A stretch of 58,132 nucleotides of DNA, filler included, from Sphacelaria rigidula (lineage: Eukaryota): NCBI GenBank assembly GCA_964200075.2. It is 3 parts of 3 records of this genome, joined end to end, with 100 filler letters (N's around TTAATTAATTAA, not from the genome) between each part and the next. Parts side by side here need not be neighbours in the genome. Positions count along the whole stretch, not along the records: positions 19,419 to 38,727 come from CAXNAA020000689.1; 2 more parts are not named here. The stretch is one strand, 5' to 3'. A model generated the notes under the pieces. The model had not been told where the DNA came from and searched no databases. It worked only from the letters and a program-made list of their open reading frames with translations. This document shows positions 16,853-38,727 of this stretch, piece by piece. Position numbers and translations under genes: made by a program. Each line of letters begins with the position of its first letter. The first letter of the stretch is position 1.

Positions 16853-18330
16853 TCGATTGATTGATTAATTGATTGATTGTCGCACCGTAACTGATCTTCC
16901 AGAAGTCATAATCCAGCCGTGATCATCATCCGCATGATAGACGTACCCAAGATGAAAACAAAATGAGAACACTCTCTGAAAGGAAGTGAAAAACAGAGAG
17001 GTAGACAGACAGGCTTCGGTGGAAAAGATATTGATAAAAACCGCTCTTACATCGAATCTTGAGAACAAAACGTCGTGGAAACAGATTGTGGTTAATCTAT
17101 TTCGACCTAAATATTTTGGGTATGAAGCTCTCATCCATGAAGCCTACGGAAGAGAGGAACCAAACTGGCATGTGCATATACTAGGAGGAAAGAACACACA
17201 TGGAGAGATATGTGGGGAAAGAAAGGTGACGGGAAAAAATGAGACTACGGGGGTGATAAAATCTAGAGGACACAGTGTGCAGTGGAGCAGGTATACGCAC
17301 ACACCAGGGTGTACCGCAAAACCACAGACCAAGGACAAAATCAACAACCAATAGAAAAAGACAGCGGTGCATCAGTTTCCGTGTTGGCCTAATTCCTCGC
17401 TTCCATCCCTAGTCGGGTACAAAGCGGGCCTGTCTCTCGGACATTTCATATTGGGCCCCTCGCGAGCCGTTACTGATGTGCTACCGGGGGCAGTTCTCGG
17501 ATTGGCGACCTTTGATGCAGCAGCCTCCTTTGTAATGGCGGTCCAATTTTCGTTTGTCTTCGCTTCGCCACATGTCCTCAAACTCGTCCGCCGCGTTCTC
17601 GACCCCAAGATGCCATCTTGCCCTTGTTCTTCGCCGTTGTGACCCAATCGTGTCCGTTGTTAACCTCTACACCGTAGACGAACCGTTTCCGTCGCGCTCC
17701 TTTGCGTGGAGCAGCCCCCAGTGCACGTAGGTTCCCCCAGAGGTTGTTTCCCTAGTGTTTGGAGGGGGCGGCCAGCCTCCTCAGACCCTTCGTCGGCTAA
17801 GCCTTCCTGCGTGATGCGTTTGGGGATATTTCATCCTCCCGGACGGGGCTCCCGCGAACCAGAGTTGACGTTTGAGGGTGGCCGTCTCGATACCTTCACA
17901 GCTGATCATGTCGAGCGCAGCTCTGTACGAAAGTCTTGAAGCCCGTTCCATCTTTCCAGTGGAATCCAACTCCTCGCAGCAAAAGCTCGTGATGGGCAGT
18001 GCCGGACTGTCGAAGTCCTCAGAACGCGACGTCAGTGTGGAACATCCATACAACAGAGTTTCCACCACCTCCGCTTTAAGCAGCCGGACTTTCATGGATA
18101 ACTGAGTGTCGGATCGATCATAGAGTTGGAAAACATACTTTCGGAGACATACCCCCACCCCACTTTGATTCGGCGATTTCGGTGAACATTTTCGCGTCCG
18201 CGCTGGGAGCACCAAGGTAGACAAACTTGGCCGTCCGCTCGTACCGTCCGCCGGCCGCGTTGATGTGTAGGGCGTTCTCTGTGTTTCTGCTCCGATTTTT
18301 CTCTAGCACGTCAGTCACGGTACTGGCCTC
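16853..18330 (-). mobile_element. Degenerate 5'-truncated RTE-like LINE retrotransposon
   Basis: Minus-strand fragments FVYLG, KVRLLKAEVVETLLYGC, LSYRAALDM..CEGIETATLKRQLWFAG typical of the post-RT region of RTE-clade LINEs, with frameshifts. (TTGA)n tail at about 16853-16879. Confidence 0.75.
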
Positions 18331-18587
18331 GCGTGTTGACCTCGCGGGGAGGGCGCAGCCTTCCCAGCCCACGCCGGTCGCTTGCTTCAGTCCGCGGAGT
18401 ACTGGACTAACAAGTGTCTCATCTCCAACGTACTTTTCATGACAGTGTCCCAACTCCGGGTAAAGCTCTGCAGCTGCGGGGTTCAAATGGAACTAAAAAT
18501 CGAGATATTTGAGGTAAGCAACCCCGAGGTGATCAAGTGACCGAAAATATAACTCGAAGTGGTGTGATCACGCATACATGAGGTGTG

Positions 18588-19318: not shown

Positions 19319-19418
19319 NNNNNNNNNNNNNNNNNNNNNNNNNNNNNNNNNNNNNNNNNNNNTTAATTAATTAANNNNNNNNNNNNNNNNNNNNNNNNNN
19401 NNNNNNNNNNNNNNNNNN
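19319..19418. other. Artificial contig-joining spacer
   Basis: 44 N + TTAATTAATTAA (stops in all six frames) + 44 N = exactly 100 nt. Composition changes abruptly across it. Confidence 0.98.
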
Positions 19419-19837
19419 GTTTCGTATATATGTCGTTAGGCGATCTATATATTCAGACGAACCGCTACACAGCTTCGGAGCGTTCCCTTCAATCTGCGCT
19501 CACCGCGTTCGGTCGACTGGAGCAGCGGGACTGGCTTCAGGAAGGCCAGGTACACAGTGTGTTGGGCTTTCTATATATTCGGGCGAACCGCTACGCAGCT
19601 TCTGAGCGTTCACTTCAATCTGCGCTCACCGCGTTCGGTCACCTGGACCCACGGGACTGGCTTCAGGAAAGCCAGGTGCACCGCTTTCTGGGCGCTTTAT
19701 ACCTTGTGACCAACCGCTACGAGGCATCGGAGCGTTCACTTCAATCTGCGCTCACCGCGTTCGGTCGACTGGAGCAGCGGTACTGGCTTCAGGAAGGCCA
19801 GGTGCACCGTTTGTTGGGTGGCCTACACAGGACAAAG
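19419..19837 (+). repeat. 126-bp intragenic tandem repeats (TPR units)
   Basis: AACCGCTAC recurs at 19460, 19586 and 19712, each followed by a near-identical GAGCGTTC.CTTCAATCTGCGCTCACCGCGTTCGGTC...CTGGCTTCAGGAA.GCCAGGT.CAC block. Confidence 0.95.
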
Positions 19838-22003
19838 GGTCGGTCGACCGACGCGTCTCGGCACTTCGCCCTCGCGCGTAAGCAGATCGGTCGCACGCAC
19901 CCCTTGGAGGCGGCTGAGGTGGATCTTCGCTCCGCGATGACGCCGGATGATCGCGTGCGAGCGCTCGGGCGGATGCTCCTTCTGCTGGATCGAGTCGAGG
20001 ACACAGAGCGCAGCCTACAGGCCCAAAACACACTGCACCCCTACATCATTGCCCAGGTGGCAGACCAATATGCGTCGAACGCGCCGGAGGCTTGGCACTG
20101 GTCAGATGTCGGGCGTGCGGTATGGACGATGCAGGCCATGCGTCGGGGCTCAGGCGGCCGGCTGGGCGAGCGATTCGCGTCGACCGGGAGCGACGTGAAG
20201 ACTCTGCAGGCGCGCATGTCAAACGTTGAAGCAGCGATTGACCCGAAGCCAGACTTGCGGACCCGCGAAAGCCTGTTTGAGTCCCCGGAGGCGCTGCTCG
20301 ACGAAGCTCAGGCGCTTGTGACGGCGCTTCGCGCGCTTGGGCCTGCGGGCGAGGCGCTGGCTGAGGCTACATACTTGGTCCCGTTGGCTGCGAGCGACAT
20401 TCCGCTCGAAGACGGCGAGGTGCTAGTGGAGTACCGGGTGCTCGAAGACAAGGTGTTGCTCTTCGTGCTCCGGAAGGGCGAGGCCGTGACGGCCCACTCG
20501 CTCGGCAAGCTGGTCGTCCATCCGGGAGGCGGTGGTCTGGAGCCCCTTGAGCAGGCCTCAACGTCCACGCAGTCCGCAAGCGCGGCCCTCGCGGCGGTGG
20601 TCGCTGCGTACGGCGCTGAGGCCAACTGTACGGGGGGAGCCAGACCGCGAGCCCTGTCGCTCGAGCTGGGCGCTGCACTGTACGACCGCCTCGTGGGCCC
20701 CGCGAAGCTGGACCCGACCCGAGACAAGCGCATCATCGTGGTCGCGGACGGCGCGCTGTGGCGTCTACCGTTCGAGGCCTTGCTGACCACGGCCCCTGCG
20801 AAGGTCTGCGCGCAGCTCGGAGGGTACACCGAAGCCTGCGAGCTCGTCGCAACGTCTTCGAAATGCAACTTGCAGAGCATCCCGTTCGTAGATGCGACCT
20901 ACGGGGTGAGTTACCTGCCATCGGCCCGCGCGCTGCGTTGGCAACGCAAGACGCTGCGTCAGGTCCCTCGGGACGACGTCGACCCCAAGGCACGACCCCT
21001 GCTATTCGCGGACGCGGTGTTCGGCAGCGATGACCCGCGTTGCAAGAACGGGCTCTCCTGTCCTTCAGGCGAGCAGGTGAAGCGGTTCGATGAACGCCTC
21101 GAACAGGTCGAGCAGGGGGCGTCCCCAGACGCTTCGAGTGCGGTGGCATTGGCCAGCCGAGGAAGCACTCGACGCAGTGCCGAGGGTGGCCGACTGCTGG
21201 GGACAGCCTACGAGGCGGCCGCGTTGAACGGGCTGCTTGGTCGGATGGGTCTGGACCCGGTTGTGCATGAGGGCCTCGATGCCCAAGAGGAGTATCTGGG
21301 GGGCTCTGATGTCCCAGTCGCGCCGGGCTTCGTGCTTGGTCTACCGATGCACGGGGTGGTGAACGCATACGCGGAGACCGGCGTGCTGGTGATGTCCATC
21401 CCGACATCCACCGCAGCAGATGGCCTGCTCTATCCCTACGAGACCTCGAACCTAGACCTGCGGGGCACCGAGGTTGTGCTCTTGACCGCGTGTCAGCTCG
21501 GCCGGGGCCTCCTGAGGCCGGGCCAAGGTGTGCTGGGCATGGTCGACCACTTCATGGCGCAAGGCGCGAAGCGGGTGTGGGCGAGCGGGTGGGACATTGA
21601 CGACGCCTCGGGTGCGGAGCTGACGGCGCGGATGATGGCGTACGCGGTCAGTGGCGAGGAGATCACGTCTGCAGCAGCTCACGCCCGCGGGGACCTTCGG
21701 CGGCAGTACGGCGTCGCTGGAGTCCACCCGTGGTACTGGGCGGGGCTCCGGGTCATCGGTGCGCCAGGGCAGGTCCAAGTGCCGCAGGGCACGAAGCGGT
21801 TGTCCACGGAGGAGGCTCTGGGCGTCGCCCTCAAGGCCTTAACGAAGACACCGACAACTATGGCCGCCACAGTCAGCTCCTCGCTGCGCCCTGCTGGGGG
21901 AGGACCCGACGCCAATCAAACTGTATTGTGGCTTCTAGCGCTGGCCACCTTTGTGGGCGTCGTCTTGGCGTTCGCGTTCGTTCGAACGCGCCGGTCTCCG
22001 TGA
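19419..22003 (+). CDS. TPR-repeat CHAT-domain (caspase-like, clan CD) protease with C-terminal membrane anchor; 5' truncated at the contig edge
   Basis: 42-aa TPR-like repeats and CHAT motifs LYDRLVGP, IIVVADGALWRLPFEALL, VSYLPSA, LLGTAYEA, MHG (catalytic His), VLLTACQLG (catalytic Cys), SGWDIDD, HPWYWAG. C-terminus is VLWLLALATFVGVVLAFAFVRTRR. The frame is open to the contig edge, so ATG 19430 is probably internal. Confidence 0.92.
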
Positions 22004-22007
22004 ACCG

Positions 22008-22033
22008 TGTCAGATGAACATCGGCTCGACGTT
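22008..22033 (+). promoter_or_regulatory. Putative ECF-type promoter TGTCAG-N16-CGTT upstream of the TadE-like gene
   Basis: TGTCAG 22008-22013, CGTT 22030-22033, ATG 10 nt later. Same motif and spacing at five other gene starts. Confidence 0.75.
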
Positions 22034-22043
22034 GATGGGGTGC

Positions 22044-22451
22044 ATGAGAACCACGGGACGACATCGTTTTCGAGGCAACGCAGTGCTGGAACTCGTGGCG
22101 GTGATGCCCATCATTCTGCTGTTCGCGTGGCTAGCGCTCGACCAGTTCTTTGTTTGGATGCCGCTTCAGCCCGAGAGCGTGCACTTGCGTGCCGCACTTT
22201 GGCAGGCCCGGAACGGGGGCGATGCGCCGCCACTTCCGGCGGGATGGTCCGTGGAGCGATTCTCATCGACTGCCGATGTGGGGTTCGATGAACTGCCGCT
22301 CGAACATCGACGGGTTTACGCGAAGTGGAGCAACCTTGAGGGTCAATCGCTCGGAAAGACGATGGAGATGTTCACGATCGTGGACCCGCGCCTCGGACCT
22401 CGGACCACGCCGGATATCTGGGGCGTTCTCTTCAGTGGGGAGGGCTTTTGA
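22044..22451 (+). CDS. TadE-like pseudopilin
   Basis: MRTTGRHRFRG|NAVLELVAVMPIILLFAWLAL: basic leader, G|xxxxE prepilin-peptidase site, hydrophobic helix with Pro. Confidence 0.75.
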   Translation: MRTTGRHRFRGNAVLELVAVMPIILLFAWLALDQFFVWMPLQPESVHLRAALWQARNGGDAPPLPAGWSVERFSSTADVGFDELPLEHRRVYAKWSNLEGQSLGKTMEMFTIVDPRLGPRTTPDIWGVLFSGEGF

Positions 22452-22537
22452 GGGTCGACTTCAAACGGTTTCTGCCGCCGATATCATGCGTGGTTTTGAC
22501 ATGTTAGGTGATTCTAGGAAGAAATCGTTGTGCATCC

Positions 22538-22563
22538 TGTCAGATGGGGCTGGTACCCACGTT
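22538..22563 (+). promoter_or_regulatory. Putative ECF-type promoter TGTCAG-N16-CGTT upstream of the sigma-like gene (autoregulatory)
   Basis: TGTCAG 22538-22543, CGTT 22560-22563. Confidence 0.75.
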
Positions 22564-22648
22564 CATGTGGTTGCAATGGATGCTCGCCAGGCCCCAGGCC
22601 CCAGGCCCCAGGCTTGCCGCGCGACGCCAAAGCAGAAAGGGATGGACC

Positions 22649-23977
22649 ATGCACGGAGGTGGAGTGACAGCAGTTGAGGCTTGCACACGGTGGCTTTGCA
22701 CCTGTCTCGCGGCCCTCGTCGCGCGACGCGCAGTGTGGGTTGATATCCAAACGTTGCTCCCCGTGACGGAGAAGGCGTACGACACCTTCCGGCAATTCGT
22801 CTCTGCTCTCGGCCCAGGCGCGAGCGCGAAAGACGTCTCGCTGTGCGAGACGGTTGAGCTGCTCTCTGCCCTGCTGGTCGAGGAGCTAGGTGGCAAAGTC
22901 TGGAATGCGCTGGAGGACGCGTGTGCCGCTGTCACGAAGGGCGAATCAGAGACTGTCGTGCGAGACCTGCTCGTCGAAGCCCTATCGCCGGACAGCGTGG
23001 ATGAGGCAGAGGAGCTGCTCCTCGAAGCCCTGTCGCTGGACAGCGTGGACGAGGCAGAGGAATCGGCCGTCTCCCGTGAATTCCCCTTCCCGATCGGAGA
23101 AATCCAGACGCCAGAGGACCTCACGAAGCTTGTTGCTGTTGGTGTTGCGGCGTCGCTGGCCGAGATGAGGAGGTGGGGCCGGAGATCCGACGTCGATCTC
23201 GCCAAGGGAATCGCGACGGATGCTGTGGTGAAAGTACTAGTGAGCTACGAGAAGAAGCTGAACGATGGTACGTGGAAGGAAGAGCCTCGATCTGAGCGCT
23301 TGCGAAGATTGCAGGGAGTAGCCGCGAGGAATCTAACGAAGGACAGATTGCATCGGCTCGTGCGCGAGGTAGGCACGGAAGAGCAAGACCTTGATCGTTC
23401 CATCCATCGACAGAGCCCACCCCCGCCGAATTTTCGACTAGACTCCGATTACTACATCCTTTGGGGCTGCCTCAGGCAATACAATAGAGCGAACGCGACC
23501 GAAGGCCAAAAACGCGCGATCCGGCATATCTGCGCGGAGATGATCGGAATCGATATGTGGTGGCTGCGTCGCATGTTCCGGTTGCTCTTCAACATCCCTA
23601 CCTTGAGCGCAATCGAGGCAGGCGTATATCGGATGAGGAATGCCGTCGTTTCGGCTATCGGCGAAGATCACGAACAGCTGAGCCAGAGGGAGTTGCCTCG
23701 GCTATTGCAGGACACCATGGTCATCTACAATGATCTCGCCGCCGAACTTGTTCAAGCGTGTCAACACAACTTGGTCCAGGGCGTGCTCGACGCTCAGCGC
23801 TTGCGGGCGAGTCTTGTGGGAACTCCACTGTGCTCCGGACCGGGTGTCATGCCAGGCATGCAGCGCCCGGCTGCGCCATCGTTGTCGGCAGATGTGCTCG
23901 TTGCCCGCCTCACCGCCTGGATCATCAACAACCCCAATTTCTGCCCCCAAGTGATTCCAAGAGGAGAAGCGAGATGA
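22649..23977 (+). CDS. Divergent ECF sigma-70-like factor with N- and C-terminal extensions (paralogue 1)
   Basis: Region-2-like IATDAVVKVL...LQGVAARNLTKDRLHR and region-4-like FNIPTLSAIEAGVYRMRNAV. Clear similarity to 36925-38310, and stop overlaps the next start (ATGA). Start is uncertain: ATG 22649 or GTG 22664; the longer ORF would overlap the promoter motif. Confidence 0.65.
   Translation: MHGGGVTAVEACTRWLCTCLAALVARRAVWVDIQTLLPVTEKAYDTFRQFVSALGPGASAKDVSLCETVELLSALLVEELGGKVWNALEDACAAVTKGESETVVRDLLVEALSPDSVDEAEELLLEALSLDSVDEAEESAVSREFPFPIGEIQTPEDLTKLVAVGVAASLAEMRRWGRRSDVDLAKGIATDAVVKVLVSYEKKLNDGTWKEEPRSERLRRLQGVAARNLTKDRLHRLVREVGTEEQDLDRSIHRQSPPPPNFRLDSDYYILWGCLRQYNRANATEGQKRAIRHICAEMIGIDMWWLRRMFRLLFNIPTLSAIEAGVYRMRNAVVSAIGEDHEQLSQRELPRLLQDTMVIYNDLAAELVQACQHNLVQGVLDAQRLRASLVGTPLCSGPGVMPGMQRPAAPSLSADVLVARLTAWIINNPNFCPQVIPRGEAR
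22967..23062 (+). repeat. 48-bp in-frame tandem duplication
   Basis: LLVEALSPDSVDEAEE / LLLEALSLDSVDEAEE, near-identical at DNA level. Confidence 0.95.
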
Positions 23978-25074
23978 CCAAGAAGGACTCGACGCTTGGG
24001 TCAGTGGGTCTAGGCGACCCGGGTCCCGAGGAGATTGCGTCCTTGGACGCGCTGCGTGTTCAGGTGGTTCGAGCTTGCAGGTCGAAGGGCCTCGCTTGCG
24101 AGCTGTCCGATGAGCTTCTGTATCGAGCGATGTCAGGGACCCTTGACCCTGGTTTGCGCGAGGAGGTGCGCGATCTGGCTGGGGATGTGTATGAGGCTCA
24201 GGAGGCCGAGCTTGCTGCTAATGTCAGCGCGCTGATCGCTGGCTCGGAGACTTCGCCGACCCCACTTCGGCTCGGTGTCTCTGAGGTGCTGGCGGAGCGG
24301 GGGACGACGACCGCATTCTCCGAAGAAGTTCTCTATGCGGCGATCGGTGGCTGTCTGAACACCGAAGACCAGGCCCGCGTTGAGGCCATTGCAGAATCTG
24401 AGCTGGCCGCTTTACGCAGCGACCTTGCTGCCGACGTCAGCTCTTTGCTGAAGCGAGCACGGCCATCAACTGCGGCCGTTTCGGAAGACACCGCGTCTAC
24501 GATTGGGACTGCGGTTCGGCGGGACCAAGGCCCATTAGGGGTAGGCGTTGACCGGGCCGAACAGGACCCGGTGGGAGCTGCAAACAAAGAACATCAGTCA
24601 CCAGCCGGAAATGTGATTCCGTTCCGACGTTGGCTGCGTGGGCAAGTCGTGCCCGTGGTCTCAGCACTGGCGGCAAGTATCATCGTGCTCTCGGTAGGGC
24701 GGGTTTGGCTCCAGGATGAAGGTAGTGGGATTCGGGCCATAGGGAACCGCGGACCCGAAGTTTCGGTAGAGTTCTCACCATCAACACGAAGCGTAGGTCC
24801 TTTGCATTGCCCTGGTTGTGGCTTGGGGAGTTTTCCTGGTGCCTTTGAGCTGGTTCTGAAGCCGCAGGTATTGGGCTCTGAGTCGGCCACGCTCACCTAC
24901 CATCTTGATGGCGAAGAAGGCCCGGTATCGGAGTCCATCGACTTCGCTGATGGGCGGTACTGGGCGGCAAAGACGGGCTGGAACCCTAGGCGTCCGATCA
25001 CGGTTACGCTGCCTGAACGGGAGAACCTGGTGGTCGTTGTGCCGATTGCTACCGGCTCTGACGCTGTCCCTTGA
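23974..25074 (+). CDS. Transmembrane anti-sigma-factor-like protein
   Basis: GAGGAG RBS and ATGA coupling to the sigma-like gene. Two copies of an anti-sigma-domain-like helix pair (DELLYRAMSGTLDPGLREEV; EEVLYAAIGGCLNTEDQARVE), a NVIPFRR...ALAASIIVL transmembrane segment typical of anti-sigmas, and a small beta-rich C-terminal domain. Confidence 0.7.
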   Translation: MTKKDSTLGSVGLGDPGPEEIASLDALRVQVVRACRSKGLACELSDELLYRAMSGTLDPGLREEVRDLAGDVYEAQEAELAANVSALIAGSETSPTPLRLGVSEVLAERGTTTAFSEEVLYAAIGGCLNTEDQARVEAIAESELAALRSDLAADVSSLLKRARPSTAAVSEDTASTIGTAVRRDQGPLGVGVDRAEQDPVGAANKEHQSPAGNVIPFRRWLRGQVVPVVSALAASIIVLSVGRVWLQDEGSGIRAIGNRGPEVSVEFSPSTRSVGPLHCPGCGLGSFPGAFELVLKPQVLGSESATLTYHLDGEEGPVSESIDFADGRYWAAKTGWNPRRPITVTLPERENLVVVVPIATGSDAVP

Positions 25075-25076
25075 TT

Positions 25077-25109
25077 CATCGTGGCTGATTCTGGGAGTCA
25101 GCCACGGTG
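25077..25109 (+). terminator. Stem-loop after the anti-sigma-like gene
   Basis: CATCGTGGCTGA...TCAGCCACGGTG, a 12-bp stem with one G-U pair, 2 nt after the stop. No U-tract. Confidence 0.55.
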
Positions 25110-25134
25110 CGAACCGAACTCTTGAAAAAAGGTA

Positions 25135-25160
25135 TGTCAGGAAGGGCTGTCCGCCACGTT
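25135..25160 (+). promoter_or_regulatory. Putative ECF-type promoter TGTCAG-N16-CGTT upstream of cpaF
   Basis: TGTCAG 25135-25140, CGTT 25157-25160, ATG 10 nt later. Preceded by an A-tract (TGAAAAAAG). Confidence 0.75.
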
Positions 25161-25170
25161 GTTGGTACAG

Positions 25171-26289
25171 ATGGCGCATCCCTCGACCTCGACATCCTGG
25201 AGAAACATCTACTCGGCGGCCTTCGCTGACGTTGCGGGTCCGCTCCGGCCCTATCTGGAGGATGACTCCACTACCGAACTCATCGTCAACGGCTCCAACG
25301 CCGTCTACGTCGAGAAGGACGGCAGACTGCGTCGGCTGGAAGACGCCTTTGAAGGTCCGGAGCAGCTCGAGGCGTTTGCGAGGGTGCTGGCCCAGTTCGT
25401 GGGCAAGCGGCTCGAAAACAATGCGCGAATCGACGGTCGGACCCCCGAGGGGGCCCGTGTCCACATTGTGCACGGACCGACCGTGGGTGGCACAATTGTG
25501 GCGATTCGCCGGGCCTCCCACACCCACCGAACCCTCGATGACCTCGTGGCGAAGGATGCGTTGACGGCCGAGGCGGCTGCCTACCTGCGGACCCTTACCC
25601 GCCTGGGTCGCAACATCATCTTCACCGGTCCGCCGTCGTGCGGAAAGACAACGCTGCTTGGCGCGGTGGCGTCTGAACTCGACTCAGGCCTTCGTGTGCT
25701 CGTGCTTGAGGACAGCCGGGAACTCTCGCTCCCGCTTGACCACGTGGTCTACCTTGAGGCCCGCCCGTCAGACGAACACGGCGAGGGCGGGGTGACGCTT
25801 CTCGACCTACTTCACTCGTCGCTTCGCCTGCGGGGTGACGCGCTGGTGGTCGGAGAGGTGAGGGGCGAGGAGGCCCTGCCTCTGGTCTTGGCGCTCACGA
25901 GCGGCTACGCGAGCACGGGGTTGTCGACGTTGCACGCAGCGTCCCCAGGCGCGGCACTGGCCCGCCTAGAGACCCTGTGTCTCATGGCACTGCCTTCGAT
26001 GGCCCCAGAGGCCCTCCGGTTGCTCGTTCGGGAGGCTGTGCACGTAGTTGTTCAGGCAGGTCGCACGTCGATGGGGCGCCGACGTGTCACCACCATCGCG
26101 GAGGTGACGCCGAGCGCGTCCGCCCCAATGGCTATGTTCGACATCGCCCCAACCGGCCCTCAGCAAGGACAAATGGTGTGGACGGGTCGGCGTTCCTGCT
26201 TCGCCGACGATCTTGTGCGCATGGAGATCGCCCCACCGGACACCCCTCCCTTCCATGCTGTGTGTCAGCCGGACAGTGATGGTTCGTAG
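25171..26289 (+). CDS. cpaF: CpaF/TadA-family pilus assembly ATPase
   Basis: ELIVNG, VYVEKDG, IDGRTPEGARVHIV, Walker A GPPSCGKTT, Asp box LEDSREL, Walker B LVVGEVRG, His-box STLHA, ALARLE. Confidence 0.93.
   Translation: MAHPSTSTSWRNIYSAAFADVAGPLRPYLEDDSTTELIVNGSNAVYVEKDGRLRRLEDAFEGPEQLEAFARVLAQFVGKRLENNARIDGRTPEGARVHIVHGPTVGGTIVAIRRASHTHRTLDDLVAKDALTAEAAAYLRTLTRLGRNIIFTGPPSCGKTTLLGAVASELDSGLRVLVLEDSRELSLPLDHVVYLEARPSDEHGEGGVTLLDLLHSSLRLRGDALVVGEVRGEEALPLVLALTSGYASTGLSTLHAASPGAALARLETLCLMALPSMAPEALRLLVREAVHVVVQAGRTSMGRRRVTTIAEVTPSASAPMAMFDIAPTGPQQGQMVWTGRRSCFADDLVRMEIAPPDTPPFHAVCQPDSDGS
26263..26288 (+). promoter_or_regulatory. Putative ECF-type promoter TGTCAG-N16-CGTA upstream of the kinase-like gene
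   Basis: TGTCAG 26263-26268, CGTA 26285-26288, inside the last codons of cpaF and 45 nt before the next ATG. Confidence 0.6.
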
Positions 26290-26333
26290 AATAACCGACG
26301 GCTCCGCTGAGTGCCGTCGAAGGAGGCTGACGC

Positions 26334-27545
26334 ATGGCCGTGATCAGATCAGATCGGTACGTTCGGGACCGAAAACTCAAACAGGATCGGGACCTCGTTG
26401 TCGAGGTGGCTCGAGACGTCGATTCCGGGAGGCGGGTCGTGATCCGTCAGCTCCCTCCAGAGCTTCCCGTCCAGTGTGAAGCTGGGGAGTCGCTCCGACG
26501 CATGAAGGAAGTACTCGACGGTCTTGAGCGGCATCCGCACGTTGAGACGGTCGTTGATTCCGGGACGGACGAGCTGGGTCGACCGGTGCTGGTGACATCG
26601 TACTTTGAGGGCACACCGCTGTCGGTTCGTCTGGAACAGGGACCGCTTCCGGCCACTCGTTGGTTGGCGCTGGCGGTCGAACTCCTCACTATCTTAGACC
26701 ATCTGGCAGGACAGGGCATCCTGCACGGGGACCTGCACCCTGGACACGTGATCGTGAAGGACGACGTGTTGATGGGGATCGTTGACTTAGGAGGCGCCCA
26801 GCAACTCGACCTCCCCAGGACGGTGCGCGGTAGTGACCCCACGACCATGGCCCCGGAGGTCTTGTCGGGCGACAACTACGGCGCACGGACCGAGTTGTAC
26901 TCTACGGGCATGGTGTTACTGCAGGCGGCCGTCGGGCACGAGCGCTGGCGCACGATCGCGGGTGGTTCGAGCCGGGGGCAATCGCGTGATCAGTGGTTCG
27001 GCTTGCACACGAGGGGCTTTCCTGTTCCCGATCTTCGCACAATTGCGGGCGTAGGATGGGACGCCATCTCGGCCGAACCGACACTTCGCCAACTCGTTGC
27101 GCGTGAGCCAACGGACCGGCCCGAGGGCGCTCGTGAGGCTCTTGACCTGCTTTCTCGAGACCTGAACACTGCAATTGCGCCGTTCCTCCCAGCGGAAGGG
27201 AGCATTGATGCAGGGTGGACCGCTATCCAGCGGTCCACGGGGCGTAAGAGAAAGGATGCACGCAACAGCCGGCGTCACGTATGGCTCGCCGGGGCGGCTT
27301 GCTCTTTGCTTGGGCTGGGCCTGCTGGCCGTAGGGGCGCAATCCCGAGGTCGCGCCGCCGGATGCAGACTGGACTCAAGGCTTGAAGCCATGGCGCAAGA
27401 AGCCGTGGGCGACTCACGCAGAGCGCAACGGATCTCCGTCCAACTCGAGGCCGTCGGATGCAGCGACCTTGCGCGAACTCTGCGACAAACGACGTCGTCC
27501 GAGACTGAAGCTGGTCACGCAGACACTCACTTCCGTGCCCCCTGA
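26334..27545 (+). CDS. Membrane-bound Hanks-type Ser/Thr kinase-like protein (probable pseudokinase)
   Basis: AGGAGG RBS. Subdomains HPHVETVVDSG, LHGDLHPGHVIV, IVDLGGA, TMAPEVL, ELYSTGMVL, PTDRP, and TM helix VWLAGAACSLLGLGLLAVG. Confidence 0.85.
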   Translation: MAVIRSDRYVRDRKLKQDRDLVVEVARDVDSGRRVVIRQLPPELPVQCEAGESLRRMKEVLDGLERHPHVETVVDSGTDELGRPVLVTSYFEGTPLSVRLEQGPLPATRWLALAVELLTILDHLAGQGILHGDLHPGHVIVKDDVLMGIVDLGGAQQLDLPRTVRGSDPTTMAPEVLSGDNYGARTELYSTGMVLLQAAVGHERWRTIAGGSSRGQSRDQWFGLHTRGFPVPDLRTIAGVGWDAISAEPTLRQLVAREPTDRPEGAREALDLLSRDLNTAIAPFLPAEGSIDAGWTAIQRSTGRKRKDARNSRRHVWLAGAACSLLGLGLLAVGAQSRGRAAGCRLDSRLEAMAQEAVGDSRRAQRISVQLEAVGCSDLARTLRQTTSSETEAGHADTHFRAP

Positions 27546-27789
27546 GACCGCACCTGGTTCGGCCCGCAACTATCAACTGGACCACGTCAGTTCAGCCTTC
27601 GTCCCATCGCGTGTTGTCTGTGAGCGACGGGCCTCCCATTCCCGAGACTCCCTCAGCCTGACTCGCTGCCTCTCATCACTACCTAATACTATCGCGACAA
27701 TCTCGCCAGAACGCTTTGCCACTATCCCGACAGCAGCAACGTCCAGACCTCCGAAGCCCAGAGCTCGATCGAAAACAACTGAAAAAAGA

Positions 27790-27815
27790 TGTCAGACGAC
27801 CGCATCCAAGAAGTT
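27790..27815 (+). promoter_or_regulatory. Putative ECF-type promoter TGTCAG-N16-AGTT upstream of the Flp-like pilin
   Basis: TGTCAG 27790-27795, AGTT 27812-27815. Preceded by TGAAAAAAG as at cpaF. Confidence 0.7.
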
Positions 27816-27867
27816 ATCAGAACAACACGGAGGCAAAACCTCCATAGACCAAAAGGCGGGATCGAAA

Positions 27868-28047
27868 ATGCAGATCATCAAGTACGGGTACGAATTCTTG
27901 TGGGACGAGTTAGGCGCCGCGGCGGAGACCGTTGCAATCATCGGAGCTATCGCGGTTCCGTTGATCGTCACGCTCTTCTTTGCTGCGAAACAGATCAAGG
28001 AGACGTTCACGTCTGCCATCGAAGTGTTCTCTGGGTTGGTGCTTTAG
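27868..28047 (+). CDS. flp: Flp-like major pilin (59 aa)
   Basis: MQIIKYGYEFLWDELG|AAAETVAIIGAIAVPLIVTLFF...IKETF: F..DE.G leader, hydrophobic helix, Flp size. It is the 3' end of the listed 27382-28047 ORF. Confidence 0.8.
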   Translation: MQIIKYGYEFLWDELGAAAETVAIIGAIAVPLIVTLFFAAKQIKETFTSAIEVFSGLVL

Positions 28048-28125
28048 ACCGACAAGAAAGTGGGGTCGCCTGTGTCGGAGCACCCCCGCTCCCGCGCAGG
28101 CGTCCCACACATAGAAGGAAGAAAG

Positions 28126-28593
28126 ATGCCGAAGACTGAGTGCCCCGGAACCCTTGATACAATTGCAGCGATAATTCTCGCAGCCGTACTGCTGGCGGGT
28201 AGCGCGTGCGCGACCTCCCCCGTAGCTTTGCCGTTGCGCCTCAACCTACTTTCGCTGAGGGTGGTCGAGGTGGAGTCGAAGGATCCAATCTGTCAGGCGA
28301 AATTACGTCTCGAGAATCAGGACAACAAGAGCAGTCTATCAACCTCAGGATGGGCCGCCGTTAGCCATGACGGAAGGGCCTTCTTCACTCACGACCCTGC
28401 GCTTCCCCTCCCGCGGATTGGGATCAGCGTCCCGAGCAACTACTTCACTCCCCCAGCTCGGGGGGTCGAGTTCGACAACGAGTCTCTGTATGAGAAGACG
28501 ATCGTCGTTCGGGCGCGCTCGCGCAAGCACCACCAAGAATCGCAGCGTGAGTGCAAAGAGATCCGTCAGCTCCAGACGAACGCCGCGTACTAA
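28126..28593 (+). CDS. Putative lipoprotein, unknown function
   Basis: GAAGGAAG before ATG 28126; hydrophobic stretch IAAIILAAVLLAGSA|C. Confidence 0.6.
   Translation: MPKTECPGTLDTIAAIILAAVLLAGSACATSPVALPLRLNLLSLRVVEVESKDPICQAKLRLENQDNKSSLSTSGWAAVSHDGRAFFTHDPALPLPRIGISVPSNYFTPPARGVEFDNESLYEKTIVVRARSRKHHQESQRECKEIRQLQTNAAY
28564..28589 (+). promoter_or_regulatory. Putative ECF-type promoter CGTCAG-N16-CGTA upstream of the coiled-coil lipoprotein
   Basis: CGTCAG 28564-28569, CGTA 28586-28589, 26 nt before ATG 28616. Confidence 0.5.
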
Positions 28594-28615
28594 TAGCGAA
28601 AGGGGAGGACAGGAC

Positions 28616-29242
28616 ATGAATCATGGATGGCGTAAGAAGGTATCGACTCTCGGCTTTCTCGTAGTGCTGTTTGTCGGGGCAACGGCTTGCGACGAGGCGC
28701 CTCCGGCCTACCGGGCGCCCGGTGCCGGTAAGGCACCGCTTGAGAACAATAGGCTGCGAAAGAGGACGGAGGGAATCCAAGAGAAGGTTACGCTGGCGAT
28801 GGTGGAGGCCGAGCGTCTGGAGGGGGCCAAGGGTGAGTACATTGCAAAGCTCGAAGCCTGTGAGGACGACCAGCAACAGAGGGCAGAGCGAATCGAGGAA
28901 CTTAACAAGGAGGTCGCTCAGGCCCGTTCCCGTGGCCGCAAGCTTCGCGGCGCTCTGATACGTCTTAAGAAGGAGCAGTCTCGACTGAGGTACATCGAAG
29001 GGCAGATGGTGGGGCATCTACAGCGCGACTTTCCGATTATTCAGGAGAGGAAGTCACAACTCGATCGAATCAGACGCAAACTGACGAGCGGAAACGGCAT
29101 GAATGCGTGCAGGATGTTGATGGTGTTGGGGCAGCGGCTACGCATCGACCTAACGTCTACGCCATCGGACGGATTCGTCCACGGCTACCTCGCCGCCATC
29201 CTGAATCACGTAAATATCCTCTATAAAGAGTGCGGCGGGTGA
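28616..29242 (+). CDS. Coiled-coil lipoprotein, unknown function
   Basis: GGGGAGG RBS; MNHGWRKKVSTLGFLVVLFVGATA|C lipobox; heptad-rich helical body. Confidence 0.7.
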   Translation: MNHGWRKKVSTLGFLVVLFVGATACDEAPPAYRAPGAGKAPLENNRLRKRTEGIQEKVTLAMVEAERLEGAKGEYIAKLEACEDDQQQRAERIEELNKEVAQARSRGRKLRGALIRLKKEQSRLRYIEGQMVGHLQRDFPIIQERKSQLDRIRRKLTSGNGMNACRMLMVLGQRLRIDLTSTPSDGFVHGYLAAILNHVNILYKECGG

Positions 29243-29272
29243 TGACGGATATTCTGGAAGGACTATGAAGAG

Positions 29273-29941
29273 ATGGAACAGAAAGCAATAACGATGACCG
29301 CCGTGGCTATGGCTGTGGCGATAGGCGCGATGGGCTGTGACCACAAGCAAGGGCCGGCGGAGTCGAGTGAACAGCAGGCGATCGCATCCCTTGAGCGCCT
29401 CGATAATGAGCATCAGGAGAAGGAGATTCAGGGCCTCGAGATCCAACTTTCCGGTATGCTCGCCAAGCTCGAAAGCACCTCGGCCGACCTTGCGAATACG
29501 CAGGCGAATTTCGCCGAGTGTGCCGGTCGGCTCGGGCTGCAGACGCCGCAAATTGAGGCCCTGGAAGGGAAGGCGAAGAGAGCGCAGAGGCTGGCGAAGG
29601 ACCTCGGCAAGGCCGTGGCGAGTACAGAGAAAGGGAGGAAGGCGCTTGAAGTAAGCGTGAAGAAGGCGGTCGCGCAGGTTATTGCCCAGGGGGCCTCCGA
29701 CCTCGCAAAACTGCGAGTCGATCGCGATCGCCTCGAGGGAGCGCTACGGGCGGACACCCTCTCTTCGCGGCGCGTGCGCATACTCTGTGAGGCGCTAAGC
29801 GAGGTACTGTCCCGTGCACAAAGGCTCGATGAATTGCACGGCCACCCGCAGGAGATGGCCTGGGAGACCCAACGCCTTGCAGAGATGAACCGTGCGCACT
29901 GCGGTTCCAAAGACCGGCCGTCGAAAGGAAGGGCGTCATGA
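29273..29941 (+). CDS. Coiled-coil lipoprotein, unknown function
   Basis: AVAMAVAIGAMG|C lipobox; long heptad pattern; ATGA overlap with the next gene. Confidence 0.7.
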   Translation: MEQKAITMTAVAMAVAIGAMGCDHKQGPAESSEQQAIASLERLDNEHQEKEIQGLEIQLSGMLAKLESTSADLANTQANFAECAGRLGLQTPQIEALEGKAKRAQRLAKDLGKAVASTEKGRKALEVSVKKAVAQVIAQGASDLAKLRVDRDRLEGALRADTLSSRRVRILCEALSEVLSRAQRLDELHGHPQEMAWETQRLAEMNRAHCGSKDRPSKGRAS

Positions 29942-30456
29942 TTGTGATGGCAGTGGTCTTAATGGCTGCGACCGGGCAATCCGCATCCAATATGCACCCT
30001 ACATCCGTACCGGCGGCTCGGGTCCAGTATCCTCGTTGGGATTATGGTTTTGCCGTGGGAGGTGGGCTCGGCGGACGACGTGAACTCACGGAAGGCGAAG
30101 GAGGACTGAAGGGCTCGCTCGCAGGGGGAGCGCACATTGAGTGCGAGCTTGCCGAGCACTGGGCTTGGGTATCCACGGCGGACCTCCGAATCGGCATCAT
30201 ACCTGTTGCGTTGACGTCAGTCTTCACTCGGTCCGGCATACATGTGCGTTGGAAAATGCTCTTCGCTGGAGCGAACCTCCGGCTCGACGTCTATCCAACG
30301 CCCCCGGCCCCTGCTTTCGAGCCCATCGTCGGGGTTCGGTGGCTCATCGGCGCGACGACGCGTGTTTTCGCGCAAGTCGCCACGCCGCTCTATCCAACCC
30401 GCGCCGACAAGGTCGACGTACTTGTGGAGGCCGGGTTGCGCATCGCGTTCCGGTGA
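29938..30456 (+). CDS. Putative small outer-membrane beta-barrel protein
   Basis: Hydrophobic N-terminus, about 8 alternating amphipathic strands (YGFAVGGGLGG, GIHVRW, VGVRWLIG, RVFAQV), ends EAGLRIAFR. Confidence 0.6.
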   Translation: MIVMAVVLMAATGQSASNMHPTSVPAARVQYPRWDYGFAVGGGLGGRRELTEGEGGLKGSLAGGAHIECELAEHWAWVSTADLRIGIIPVALTSVFTRSGIHVRWKMLFAGANLRLDVYPTPPAPAFEPIVGVRWLIGATTRVFAQVATPLYPTRADKVDVLVEAGLRIAFR

Positions 30457-30470
30457 CCAGGGGATTAAGG

Positions 30471-30635
30471 ATGCGGACACGTCGGCGCCAGCATGTGCGA
30501 GGCCTCGCGGCACTTGAGACCGTTGCGATCGTCACGGTCGTCGCGTTCCCCCTCGCCGTCGCAGGCTGGATTGCGCATGACATGATATCCATATGGTGGG
30601 TTGCGACCTGGAACGTGATTGCCTTCCCGTGGTGA
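30471..30635 (+). CDS. Small pilin/pseudopilin (54 aa)
   Basis: MRTRRRQHVRG|LAALETVAIVTVVAFPLAVAGW...IAFPW: G|xxxxE site; shares ETVAI with the Flp. Confidence 0.75.
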   Translation: MRTRRRQHVRGLAALETVAIVTVVAFPLAVAGWIAHDMISIWWVATWNVIAFPW

Positions 30636-30692
30636 ATCAACGCCACCGACAAGTTAGAGAAGCAGAGTTGTTCGCATTAAAGGAGGCAGGGC

Positions 30693-31181
30693 ATGAGGAA
30701 GATCGAGAAGTACCGCCGAACCACGCGTGGACATGCAGCGATATCGGTCATGCTCGCGCTCCCCGTACTCCTCGGGTTCCTGGACCTTATGACTCAGGCT
30801 GTGGTCTTCGCTTGGGGCGTGAGCCTCAGCGGGCACGCCGCGGTGCGCGTCGCGCGGTCAGCCAGCGTGCTCGTCTCGCAGAGGCTCGAGAACGACGCCC
30901 CCAACGTGCTGGGCGCCGCGAAGAGAGTTAGGCTTGAGGAGGTTGCTCGCACCGCGCTTGCGCCTCTTGGGGAACGTCTGGCGATGACCCTGGATGTGCG
31001 AGACGGCACCTTCGGGCCGACCGAAATGATCGAGGTGCGACTCGACGTTGGACTGCCCTGCATCGCCCCCATGTGGGGGCGCTTGCTCTGCGATGAAAGA
31101 GAGGGGCAAGTCCGCCGACGATGGGTACGACACACGGTCTATATGCCAAACGAGGGACATCGCCATCTGGGCAGAAGGTGA
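30693..31181 (+). CDS. TadE-like pseudopilin
   Basis: AAAGGAGG RBS; RRTTRG|HAAISVMLALPVLLGFL...GHAAVRVARSASV (TadE AA..AAR.A motif). Confidence 0.8.
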   Translation: MRKIEKYRRTTRGHAAISVMLALPVLLGFLDLMTQAVVFAWGVSLSGHAAVRVARSASVLVSQRLENDAPNVLGAAKRVRLEEVARTALAPLGERLAMTLDVRDGTFGPTEMIEVRLDVGLPCIAPMWGRLLCDEREGQVRRRWVRHTVYMPNEGHRHLGRR

Positions 31182-31187
31182 GACACT

Positions 31188-32387
31188 ATGAAGACTGCAA
31201 GAAGAACCCGCCGAGGGATGGTGTCCATCTGGACGATGCTCGTGTTTATTGGACTCGTAGCGCTGGTATGCTTCGCGCACAACGCGGCCCGGTCGGTGTC
31301 GGCTGCGACGGAGGCCCAGGTGGCAGCGGACAACGCCGCGATGACCTTCGCCACGACTTACGCCCGCGGGCTCAACAAGATCGAGACTCTCAACCAGGAA
31401 TTGTCATTGATTATGGGCGCAAGAGCTGTCGCGGAAGCTCTGCCACGTGCACTCAGGGACTGCCGGACAACGGCGGTCGCACTGGCTGCGGCGACTTCCT
31501 GGTGGGGCGGCTGGGTGATTTACGGGCCGTATCTCGAAGCCCTTAACGTCCTGATCCCCACCGCCGACGGGCTTAGGGCCGTCGTGGTCGGTGCAGCGCA
31601 AGTACGCTTGCCTGTGTTGGCGCAGCAGGCGTACAGAATGGCCAAGGGTACGCCTGCCCTCGCCACGCAGACCGCGAGAGCTTCCATCGCAGAGACGGGC
31701 ATCACGGTGACCTTCGTGCCCCTAGACCCTGAGGGTGACCTCGAACTCCCAGTCCAACCTCGACCCCTCGGAGCCCTCTGCTCGTGGGTCAAGGACGGTT
31801 CACCCCAGGGGGCGGACAGCCGGCAACGCCGCGTCTTCTCTGCCCTCTGGGGGTGGCGAGAAGACGAAGGCACAGCCGAGCACATCGCCAAGGGGTGGAG
31901 CCTGCCGGAGCTGTTCAATATCGCCCTCGCCCCAGTGGGCGGCCCGTTCCACTGGTCCCATCGGCTCAAGGAGGCCGTTAGAGACGAATGCGATCGCACG
32001 GAACCGGGACCGTATCTGTTTCCATCGACGTCCAATCCTGTCGAGAAAGCAGCCCAGCGAACCCAGTTCCTAGCCCTGACATTAGCTCCTCGGCCCCTCC
32101 TGCTCGATGTCATCGCGCCTCGTAGCGGTGAACGTACATTCGAGCGTACCGAGACCACCGCGCTCCTCTCGACCGCCACGGTCGAGCTCGCCAACGATGT
32201 AAGCATCGGGTGTGCGAGCAGCGCCTCGTGGGCTCCGCAGCTGGTCTTCGAGCCGGACGCGACGCTTGCAGCCGTCGCTCGTGTGGGGGATCTCGGGCTT
32301 TCCGAGGCAATGAGCACCACCATCACAAACCGCTTTCGCCATCACGCGCGCGTCGCAGTTGGACGTGGCTTTAGCGCCTCTCACTAG
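31188..32387 (+). CDS. TadG-like pilus-assembly protein
   Basis: RRTRRG|MVSIWTMLVFIGLVALVCF...EAQVAADNAAMTFATTYARGLN matches the Tad N-terminal Q.AAD.AA motif. Confidence 0.8.
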   Translation: MKTARRTRRGMVSIWTMLVFIGLVALVCFAHNAARSVSAATEAQVAADNAAMTFATTYARGLNKIETLNQELSLIMGARAVAEALPRALRDCRTTAVALAAATSWWGGWVIYGPYLEALNVLIPTADGLRAVVVGAAQVRLPVLAQQAYRMAKGTPALATQTARASIAETGITVTFVPLDPEGDLELPVQPRPLGALCSWVKDGSPQGADSRQRRVFSALWGWREDEGTAEHIAKGWSLPELFNIALAPVGGPFHWSHRLKEAVRDECDRTEPGPYLFPSTSNPVEKAAQRTQFLALTLAPRPLLLDVIAPRSGERTFERTETTALLSTATVELANDVSIGCASSASWAPQLVFEPDATLAAVARVGDLGLSEAMSTTITNRFRHHARVAVGRGFSASH

Positions 32388-32639
32388 CGGGACCAGGCGT
32401 TCGAAAGGGGCACAAGGCTTGGTCCTCGCTTTCTCTCTAAGACGAGGCGTCGCAGAGTGCACCCGCAGACCAGTTTTGGCTTAGTCCCTTGCTCAGAAAT
32501 TCGAGCAATCAAGTCGGAAGGCCTCAGTATCCAGTATGCGGGCGCGCAATAATCTGGCATGATTGCGTGTTGCTCAACGGGGCGCCAGCCGTATGTGCTG
32601 TCTTGCCATTCCGCCCTGAACAAGAATCGAGAGTCCAAC

Positions 32640-33125
32640 ATGTCCGGAGAAAGCTTGAAAGCGTCTCGAACTGCACGAGTGACACCCACGCTAAACGTCG
32701 AAGCGTCCGTGGACCTCGTCTGTCACCAGCTCGGCGAGACTCGTGAGCAGCCGTCAAGCCGAGAGCAAGTCCTTCAGAAGCGCGATGAACTAGTCTATCG
32801 CGCGCTAGTGGGTGAACTCGACCCTCGCCTTACCAACGAGGTACGGGAGTTATTCGCGGACCGTATTGAGGAACTTGGACTGCAGGTCGATGGCGAGGTA
32901 TGTTGGCTCATCGGCGCCTCGACCATTGCCCTCGCGCTTGAGATCGCAGAAAAAGCAGCCGCGGAAGGCGTGAGCGTCGAGTTGCCCGATAGTCTGCTTG
33001 AAGCTGCGGCTGAAGGCAAACTGAGCGAGGAGGTGACGGCACGTCTTGAAGCGATCGCATGGCCCGAGCTTGCCGCGACCCGTCTTGTCGTTTGGGGCAG
33101 GGCTGGCAAGGGGGACTTAGGATGA
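32640..33125 (+). CDS. Soluble paralogue of the anti-sigma-like N-terminal double domain
   Basis: DELVYRALVGELDPRLTNEVRELFAD aligns with DELLYRAMSGTLDPGLREEVRDLAGD, and ARLEAIAWPELAA with ARVEAIAESELAA. No TM helix. Confidence 0.7.
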   Translation: MSGESLKASRTARVTPTLNVEASVDLVCHQLGETREQPSSREQVLQKRDELVYRALVGELDPRLTNEVRELFADRIEELGLQVDGEVCWLIGASTIALALEIAEKAAAEGVSVELPDSLLEAAAEGKLSEEVTARLEAIAWPELAATRLVVWGRAGKGDLG

Positions 33126-33131
33126 AATCAC

Positions 33132-33172
33132 GGGCAGCTTGCAGCTCCCTGTTGAGCTGTCAAAGGCTGCCT
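33132..33172. terminator. Stem-loop between convergent genes
   Basis: GGCAGC.TTG.CAGCTC-loop-GAGCTG.CAA..GCTGCC in the 66-nt gap between two stop codons. Confidence 0.5.
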
Positions 33173-33191
33173 GACGCGGACGAGCCGGCCA

Positions 33192-36668: not shown

Positions 36669-36924
36669 TATCCAGGGGTTGCGGGTGTGAACCCGAGGGG
36701 GTCATAGCTGAAACAACGGCGGAGATCGAGGGGGCCCACATGCCGTCAAATGTGCGGACTCGGGGAGCTTGGGGAGTCGGCGCAACCGCACAGGCCGATA
36801 TCGGAGCATATGGAGCCACTGAAGAACTGATGGGAGTCACAAAAACCCTAGACATATCAAGCGGTTACCGGTTCGCGCGGGTTGCAATCGCCATTGCGAT
36901 TGGTCAGAATAGTGGTGTGGGCTG

Positions 36925-38310: not shown

Positions 38311-38374
38311 AGTCTTGGTTCGCCAGATTCACCTCTCGCGTTCGGACACAGCCCGCTCGTCTGATTTCGGGCCC

Positions 38375-38587: not shown

Positions 38588-38727
38588 TCGCGCAGCAGGG
38601 CGCCTTGCGGCCGTCGCGCCTCGGCATCGACTCTTGTGAAAATGAACCTTTTCAGTAAACTCGGTGCTTCGTGGCCCCAGCACCCAAGAAAACCCGCCCC
38701 ACCAAGGCCACCAAGCCCAAGCGACGG

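Follow-up and report, generated by a model that had tools for sequence, protein, structure and literature searches.

The stretch analysed here, referred to as the window, is 58,132 nucleotides of DNA from the Sphacelaria rigidula assembly GCA_964200075.2, in which three parts are joined end to end. The locus described below lies in a bacterial piece of 19,309 bp with 60% GC (19419-38727, CAXNAA020000689.1); the pieces on either side have ~49% GC, are without long open reading frames (ORFs) and look eukaryotic. Six copies of a bipartite motif, YGTCAG-N16-MGTW, have been identified in this bacterial contig. All are on the plus strand, each has a spacer of exactly 16 nt, and the six are packed within 6.6 kb among genes of the Tad/Flp pilus type, where they are read as putative promoters of the extracytoplasmic function (ECF) class. 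The gene order is TPR-CHAT, site P1 and a tadE-like gene, P2 and a sigma-like gene (sig1) with an anti-sigma-like gene, P3 and cpaF, P4 and a kinase gene, P5 and a flp-like with a lipoprotein-like gene, and P6 with six genes that end in a TadG-like one.

The start sites quoted for these promoters are predictions derived from the sigmaH register, which is described below. P1 (22008-22033, TGTCAG-N16-CGTT) lies 4 nt past the stop codon of the TPR-CHAT gene. Its predicted +1 is 22042 (T at -1, G at +1), and the ATG of the TadE-like pseudopilin gene (22044-22451) falls at +3. P2 (22538-22563) precedes sig1 (22649-23977; 442 aa, with an alternative in-frame ATG at 22580) and is putatively autoregulatory; its predicted +1 is 22572, with a pyrimidine-purine pair one base later (22572/3). 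The anti-sigma-like gene (23974-25074, 366 aa) is coupled to sig1 by an ATGA overlap. P3 (25135-25160), with an A-tract at 25123-25131, has a predicted +1 at 25169 (C at -1, A at +1) and again places an ATG at +3, that of cpaF (25171-26289). Position 25171 is the sole in-frame cpaF start after the predicted +1 within 40 codons.

P4 (26263-26288) carries a -10 element of CGTA and falls within the final 9 codons of cpaF, where it overlaps the stop. The predicted +1 at 26297 (C, then G) leaves a 37-nt leader with a strong Shine-Dalgarno (SD) sequence before the kinase gene (26334-27545). P5 (27790-27815, -10 AGTT), with an A-tract at 27780-27788, has a predicted +1 at 27824 (C, then A) and stands before the gene for a Flp-like pilin (27868-28047), which is followed by a lipoprotein-like ORF (28126-28593). 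The weakest site, P6 (28564-28589, CGTCAG-N16-CGTA), is found within the final codons of that ORF; its predicted +1 at 28598 (C, then G) gives an 18-nt leader with a strong SD ahead of a probable operon (28616-32387). All of these genes are on the plus strand. Each of the 13 genes of this orientation between 22044 and 32387 sits behind a site; where a gene has no site of its own, the gap before it is at most 78 nt. The extents of the operons are inferred.

A rescan of the contig returned the same six sites that the initial annotation had listed, with the same spacing and all on the plus strand. That annotation had also placed each site just upstream of a gene, and the motif copies do end 10-85 nt before a start codon, with the qualification that those at 26263 and 28564 are inside the 3' ends of the preceding ORFs. 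None of 100 shuffled sequences reaches six matches (mean 0.93), and the motif is absent from the 38.6 kb of the window outside the contig. The 34 other spacer lengths between 5 and 39 give seven matches in total and at most two for any one length. A further 23 YGTCAG hexamers in the contig, counted on both strands, are without the downstream block; among them are the in-gene hexamers at 21491, 24131, 24222 and 28291, for which its reported absence was found to be correct. Conservation is confined to the two blocks, and the spacer and flank letters are not conserved. What speaks against reading much into the count itself is a full enumeration in which 474 patterns of equal shape and degeneracy reach at least six matches in the contig; because of these, the raw count loses its significance once post hoc fitting is allowed for.

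The significance of the motif rests instead on its position, because positional controls never reach six upstream regions. All same-shaped patterns were enumerated de novo over 16 upstream windows of 150 nt each, and GTCAG-N16-GT was the only pattern found at 5-6 genes. Five genes were reached by none of 400 random window sets, by none of 400 dinucleotide shuffles and, with two start positions corrected, by none of 1500 random sets. With windows of 250 nt, 9 of 400 random sets reach five genes and none reaches six; with spacers of 0-30 allowed, five of 250 sets reach five and none of the 250 reaches six. Coding-sequence controls give at most four genes for the first 150 nt and at most three for the last 150 nt. 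In a leave-one-out scan the held-out sites rank 1, 1, 1, 1, 1 and 4, the last being the site at 28564, and the next-best matrix matches are antisense and inside genes. The consensus was loosened to take in the sites at 27790 and 28564, and the latter alone could be a chance match. The motif also occurs once each in seven of the 118 loci examined, which are too distant to test conservation. A terminator scan gave 11 hits against 13.5 expected.

The spacing of the two blocks corresponds to a known promoter geometry. In the part of the sigmaH work that deals with promoter structure, the -35 hexamer occupies -34 to -29 and is followed by a 17-bp spacer and by G-11, T-10 and T-9, and ECF factors are described as having strict sequence and spacer requirements (10.1101/534826). 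The arrangement TGTCAG-N16-C-GTT is identical, with a hexamer, 17 nt and GTT, which agrees with the ECF-type -35/-10 layout first proposed for these sites. Since the sigmaH register is applied, the start site becomes the ninth base after CGTT and two ATGs fall at +3; the start only a few nucleotides after CGTT that had been expected earlier is not retained.

Transcription initiation prefers a pyrimidine at -1 and a purine at +1. Such a pair is present at the predicted +1 in five of the six sites, and in the sixth it lies one base later. Against a background frequency of 0.243, the P value is 0.004 at one register and ~0.012 if three registers are allowed; the latter is fairer because the column table had been seen before the sigmaH numbering was applied. 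The pair occurs at the equivalent position in 3 of the 23 non-site YGTCAG hexamers, and between -60 and +60 every other register outside the motif stays below five.

Further signals accompany individual sites. The only two A6 tracts of the contig, on either strand, are directly upstream of the cpaF and flp sites, ending 3 nt and 1 nt before the hexamer, respectively. The sequence TGAAAAAAG is found in the window only at 25123 and 27780, as expected from the UP-like tract that the initial annotation described for these two sites. The A-tracts may act as UP elements. Should the host be a myxobacterium, they may instead be sites for CarD-CarG, for which binding to AT-rich DNA is reported (PMC6061681). 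Neither the initiation pair nor the A-tracts played any part in defining the motif. At the tadE-like gene (ATG at 22044) and cpaF (ATG at 25171), the ATG 10 nt after CGTT was recovered as previously noted. Among 16 plus-strand starts, these two genes have the weakest SD pairing (-2.3 and -2.4 kcal/mol), in keeping with the earlier remark that no clear ribosome-binding site is present; the one minus-strand start tested has a weaker SD than either. The kinase, flp and lipoprotein genes have leaders of 18-44 nt with an SD. The proposal of near-leaderless tadE-like and cpaF messages is thus supported at the level of predicted start sites.

Elements of the CGT type at -10 and of the TGTCA type at -35 are known, in the sections of the literature covered here, for ECF37, ECF41, ECF103, ECF131, ECF250, ECF288, DdvS and Bacillus subtilis ECFs (PMC3426412, PMC7826278, PMC5758882, PMC6061681, PMC11506125). 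On this evidence the six sites are very likely ECF-type promoters, with predicted activity.

The candidate for reading these promoters is sig1, an orphan ECF-sigma-like protein by its language-model (Atlas) features. A sigma2/sigma4-like core spans approximately residues 150-340, with helical extensions at the N- and C-terminus, and the helix series of both sig1 and its paralogue sig2 are compatible with sigma2 and sigma4, as judged by eye and from low-confidence AlphaFold2 models (pLDDT 39 and 43). Of the nine rows listed for the named Atlas clusters closest to sig1 residues 140-345, eight are of the sigma-70/ECF kind by name or Pfam, at a cosine of 0.91-0.92. Profile alignments place the sigma2 helices in register, at scores not above those of shuffled controls. 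The gene has its own site, P2, and the coupled anti-sigma-like protein has one membrane helix (224-242) and a C-terminal domain predicted outside the cytoplasm. The second paralogue, sig2 (36925-38310, plus strand, likely start 36976), is 25% identical to sig1 over 314 aa. No matching site is found upstream of sig2, the best upstream candidates being without a -10 block, and no anti-sigma-like gene is adjacent to it. Taken together, these features make it likely that sig1 is a sigma factor and the cognate one, and the anti-sigma-like protein is inferred to bind it. The site before the sigma-like gene suggests autoregulation, as the initial annotation held, but it is not the independent proof of the sigma assignment that was claimed, since profile, database and structure tests did not confirm a sigma factor.

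Repeats and a further promoter-like stretch have been observed in and around these genes. A 7-nt unit is repeated three to four times in the sig1 leader (22586-22610); these copies would belong to an N-terminal extension if the start is at 22580. A 48-nt tandem duplication is present within sig1 (22964-23059). The N-terminus of the anti-sigma-like protein (23974-24420) seemingly has two tandem copies of the zf-HC2-matching helix motif, by eye without zinc ligands. An AT-rich stretch before P2 (22460-22502) contains a sigma70-like match at 9 of 12 positions and an isolated TTGACA; it could be a basal promoter for sig1, but the sigma70 consensus scan stays at chance level (four sites against 3.6 expected).

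Several results weigh against the identification of sig1 or against the promoter assignment. Neither sig1 nor sig2 matched a sigma model in Pfam, NCBIfam or PHROGs. An hhalign comparison with a profile of 24 actinobacterial ECFs, taken from 30 actinobacterial ECF loci, gave a probability of 1%, below at least five of 100 block-shuffled controls; in the domain-wise version, 2 of 40 shuffles equal the best scores, and under other settings 9 of 40 and 20 of 40 do so. Neither protein had a relative at E<=0.001 among 8000 candidates or at E<=10 among 5870. A collection of 1.84 billion sequences returned no sigma relatives, only one short, unrelated-looking match in a 1794-aa protein, and a search of 5.8 billion sequences likewise gave no sigma relatives. 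The Atlas matches share just 130-139 of 256 features, compared with 170 typical of family members. In the anti-sigma-like protein the best zf-HC2 match (E 0.076) is below the cut-off, and both of the two paralogues, this protein and a soluble one, match only weakly. An orthologous locus was not found: eight genome loci (25-60% identity) and 80 metagenome cpaF loci (31-44%) are generic. Of all sites it is P2, the one belonging to sig1, that is without a pyrimidine-purine pair at the exact register. The gene starts used in the positional test were called by the analyst after the finding had been seen. Polyadenylated RNA from two runs, of which ~5-6% was sampled, gave no reads on the locus, which says nothing either way about expression.

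Other searches add little in either direction. None of the genome or metagenome loci just named carries relatives of the orphan ORFs, the 80 metagenome loci are without an ECF-profile match, and 311 metagenome stretches contain no sig1 or sig2 relatives. Foldseek gave no match at E<=0.001, which is uninformative either way. The best VIA score (Z 6.4) is to unrelated helical bundles with the sigma4 part barely covered, and is equally uninformative, and sequence searches of the PDB returned nothing useful.

The failure of profile and fold tests to confirm sig1 as a sigma factor favours an alternative that we regard as rather unlikely, namely that the promoters are of ECF type but are read by sig2 or by a conventional ECF encoded elsewhere (for example an ECF37-like one); sig1 would then be one of the targets or a regulator other than a sigma. 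The motif differs by no more than two letters from both the ECF37 and the ECF41 consensus, sig2 is equally sigma-like, and the 19.3 kb examined here is just a part of this genome. However, a site and a coupled gene for a membrane anti-sigma-like protein are found at sig1 and not at sig2, and the six sites cluster around sig1 within 6.6 kb in the manner of the four clustered promoters of DdvS. An operator for a non-sigma transcription factor that binds a direct repeat or palindrome, or else a processing signal, is improbable. TGTCA is a short odd palindrome and resembles the half-sites of OmpR/PhoB-type regulators, but the two blocks differ, their orientation is fixed, and the pyrimidine-purine pair stands where a promoter predicts it. 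Apart from the internal symmetry of the hexamer, offsets from -45 to +45 show no conserved second copy, direct or inverted, on which ground a Pho-box-like direct repeat or palindrome operator was rejected; Rfam gave no match. A chance pattern fitted afterwards (474 same-shaped patterns, a consensus loosened for two sites) or a relic of duplicated gene starts (several paralogue pairs on the contig) is still more improbable, since the enumeration controls never reach six upstream regions, the held-out ranks are high and the initiation-pair and A-tract signals are independent, and since the relic was rejected on the unconserved spacers and flanks of sites that lie outside all listed repeat families.

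The genes around the sites are identified with differing degrees of support. The TPR-CHAT caspase-like protease (19430-22003, plus strand, 857 aa) is open to the contig start and matches Pfam CHAT (E 4e-29) and TPR_12 (E 3e-10). Motifs for a His641-Gly and Cys688 dyad are present, and hydropathy indicates a C-terminal membrane helix (833-851) followed by a basic tail. Three TPR-coding repeats of 126 nt with 85-88% DNA identity are found at 19439-19818, and because the assembly breaks at the TPR repeats, the N-terminus and any signal peptide are missing. CpaF is a divergent CpaF/TadA pilus ATPase with a long branch, and its best relatives are up to 45% identical. It has TSGY in place of the TSGH box of its relatives and further changes around Walker B, and its branch amounts to 2.7 changes per column; its sequence suggests a fast-evolving protein, possibly with altered activity. 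In the CpaF tree its position is loose, with a support of 93 and an open fork, among 27 rows, one of them an Oligoflexia protein. The kinase is a membrane-anchored Ser/Thr kinase (Pfam Pkinase, E 4e-15; membrane helix 316-334).

The operon behind P6 comprises two coiled-coil lipoprotein-like ORFs, an exported protein, a small pilin-like ORF, a TadE-like and a TadG-like gene, with gaps of 30, -4, 14, 57 and 6 nt. Pfam backs the pilus labels only for CpaF and, weakly, for TadG (Pfam Tad, E 0.0097, below the cut-off), and the pilin labels come from N-terminal motifs seen by eye. The product of the tadE-like gene behind P1 has no Tad Pfam match; it is labelled by a prepilin-like motif, and its N-terminus is like those of three other pilin-like ORFs. 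The Flp-like pilin, also labelled by eye, and the lipoprotein-like ORF at 28126-28593 have no Pfam match. No TadB/TadC platform, secretin, CpaB or peptidase was seen among the contig ORFs with Pfam and NCBIfam, many of these ORFs being orphans. Since no TadB/C, secretin or peptidase was seen on the contig, the locus looks like an accessory set. PADLOC gave only generic kinase matches of note.

Downstream, the soluble paralogue of the anti-sigma-like protein (32640-33125, plus strand) is 42% identical to the N-terminus of the latter over 103 aa and has no motif upstream. Together with sig2 it flanks a 1158-aa orphan ORF on the minus strand (33192-36668), which has no Pfam, NCBIfam or PADLOC match and no SD at its called start. 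A Walker-B-like segment at residue 317 and a degenerate P-loop-like one near 215-230, both seen by eye, suggest a decayed STAND-type NTPase. Because neither sig2 nor the soluble paralogue has the motif, the two may belong to another circuit that uses a promoter of its own.

The sequence of the contig is not an assembly artefact. Contigs of run X4, which may be the sample of origin, span 19751-38709 in three pieces that overlap and agree with it at every letter; among the differences listed for run X5, which belongs to a second study, none falls on a site. Several diverged X4 contigs pile up on the last 150 nt (38578-38727), pointing to a repeat family elsewhere in the same genome. The window itself is a concatenation, with identical linkers at 19319-19418 and 38728-38827 that consist of 44 N, a 12-nt AT palindrome with stops and 44 N. 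In the low-GC flank, the minus strand at 17781-18486 contains ORF fragments, which we take to resemble a decayed LINE-type reverse transcriptase region.

The reading that we favour, and consider reasonably likely as a whole, is that the six sites are ECF-type promoters of a self-contained Tad/Flp regulon read by the adjacent sig1. RNA polymerase with an ECF-type sigma would recognize TGTCAG as the -35 element (-34 to -29) and (C)GT(T/A) as the -10 element, with GTT at -11 to -9. Transcription would start ~9 nt after the -10, at 22042, 22572/3, 25169, 26297, 27824 and 28598. In this way sig1 would drive its own gene and the coupled membrane anti-sigma, forming a positive loop with an inhibitor, as well as five further units; with its own unit, these would cover all 13 genes from the tadE-like to the TadG-like one. 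The output would be an alternative set of Flp pilin, pseudopilins, pilus ATPase, kinase and lipoproteins, produced when an outside signal leads to destruction of the anti-sigma and release of sig1. Cleavage of the anti-sigma by the adjacent TPR-CHAT protein is a possible but speculative step. A broader proposal is more doubtful still: sig1 and sig2 would represent a sigma lineage of ~440 aa invisible to current profiles and betrayed by its promoter (TGTCAG-N16-CGTT) alone, the separate, C-terminally anchored TPR-CHAT protein would cut the anti-sigma and so make this a split DdvA switch, and an interchangeable Tad set, expressed in part from near-leaderless messages, would serve surface or cell contact and not phage defence.

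Clustered ECF promoters are ordinary. In this case the promoter leads to a protein that is probably a sigma factor but went unnoticed by Pfam, NCBIfam and searches of billions of sequences, and because it escapes these searches, ECF censuses may be suspected of overlooking such proteins. Six start sites are predicted and two proteins are candidate sigmas, and an ECF/anti-sigma/TPR-CHAT module appears linked to pilus genes, not to defence genes. Pseudomonas aeruginosa SigX reportedly affects flp-related traits. In literature mostly judged by title, with the ECF classification tables and logos covered in part, neither an ECF with a TGTCAG -35 nor a Tad locus with an ECF regulon dedicated to it was found.

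The spacer of sigmaW promoters is 16 nt. The -35 elements of mycobacterial sigmaH and B. subtilis sigmaW, GGAAYA and TGAAAC, differ from that found here, and no protein sequence relationship to them is shown. The B. subtilis ECFs use CGTA or CGTC as the -10, and sigmaW uses CGTA (PMC5758882). ECF54 of the Actinobacteria is encoded near TPR-CHAT proteins, has a GTATCAG / CTCC promoter, and is described with subtilase and carboxypeptidase-like neighbours and without an anti-sigma (PMC7826278). Its -35 ends in TCAG, as here, but the CTCC -10, the lack of an anti-sigma and the subtilase neighbour do not fit the locus, and membership was rejected.

ECF37 has a TGTCAACC / CGTT promoter, with a DUF3619 anti-sigma at +1 and DUF3106 at +2 (PMC7826278). 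It is closer in sequence to the sites than ECF41. The -10 CGTT and the first five letters of the -35 are shared, and the one-helix anti-sigma at +1 and the predicted autoregulation have putative counterparts here, whereas position 6 of the -35 is G here and the listed ECF37 neighbours are absent by Pfam. The +1 gene has no DUF3619 match and the +2 gene encodes CpaF, so the locus was not assigned to ECF37. ECF41, with which the sites had initially been compared, recognizes TGTCACA-n16-CGTC with a spacing tolerance of +/-1; it has a fused C-terminal regulatory domain in place of an anti-sigma and targets only neighbouring COE genes (PMC3426412). The TGTCA start, the CGT-type -10 and the spacing within that tolerance support the resemblance. 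It ends there, since in the same register the ECF41 consensus has one extra base and ends in CGTC, and the locus has an anti-sigma-like gene and six targets. None of the six sites has TGTCAC or CGTC, no COE Pfam match is found in 16 ORFs, and the neighbours are the tadE-like and anti-sigma-like genes, which excludes membership. Against the SnoaL-like extension of ECF41, sig1 has no SnoaL match; its extension is helical in the low-confidence model, and the protein escapes all profiles.

The closest architecture is that of DdvS/DdvA from Myxococcus xanthus, in which an ECF sigma is translationally coupled to a single-pass anti-sigma, an arrangement that sig1 and the anti-sigma-like gene would match. 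DdvS has four clustered GTAA-n16-CGT promoters, and a periplasmic TPR-CHAT region has been proposed as the site-1 protease (PMC6061681, PMC11506125). Both systems have promoters clustered in their own locus, before upstream genes, at the autoregulatory position and downstream, with four for DdvS and six putative ones here. The -35 differs, being TGTCAG here and one base further from CGT. In DdvA the TPR-CHAT region is the extracytoplasmic domain of the anti-sigma itself, whereas here a gene of its own encodes it, with an anchor at the C-terminus. CHAT is absent from the 366-aa anti-sigma-like ORF, and with TPR-CHAT not fused, the DdvA type was rejected. In contrast to DdvA, the N-terminus of the anti-sigma-like protein shows no CHCC zinc motif by eye, and in contrast to DdvS, the sigma-like protein is ~440 aa long and invisible to profiles. 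The cargo is CBASS/CRISPR for DdvS, and Tad/Flp, kinase and lipoproteins here. The locus fails membership of ECF41, ECF37, ECF54 and the DdvA type, but it would work like a DdvS-type local ECF regulon.

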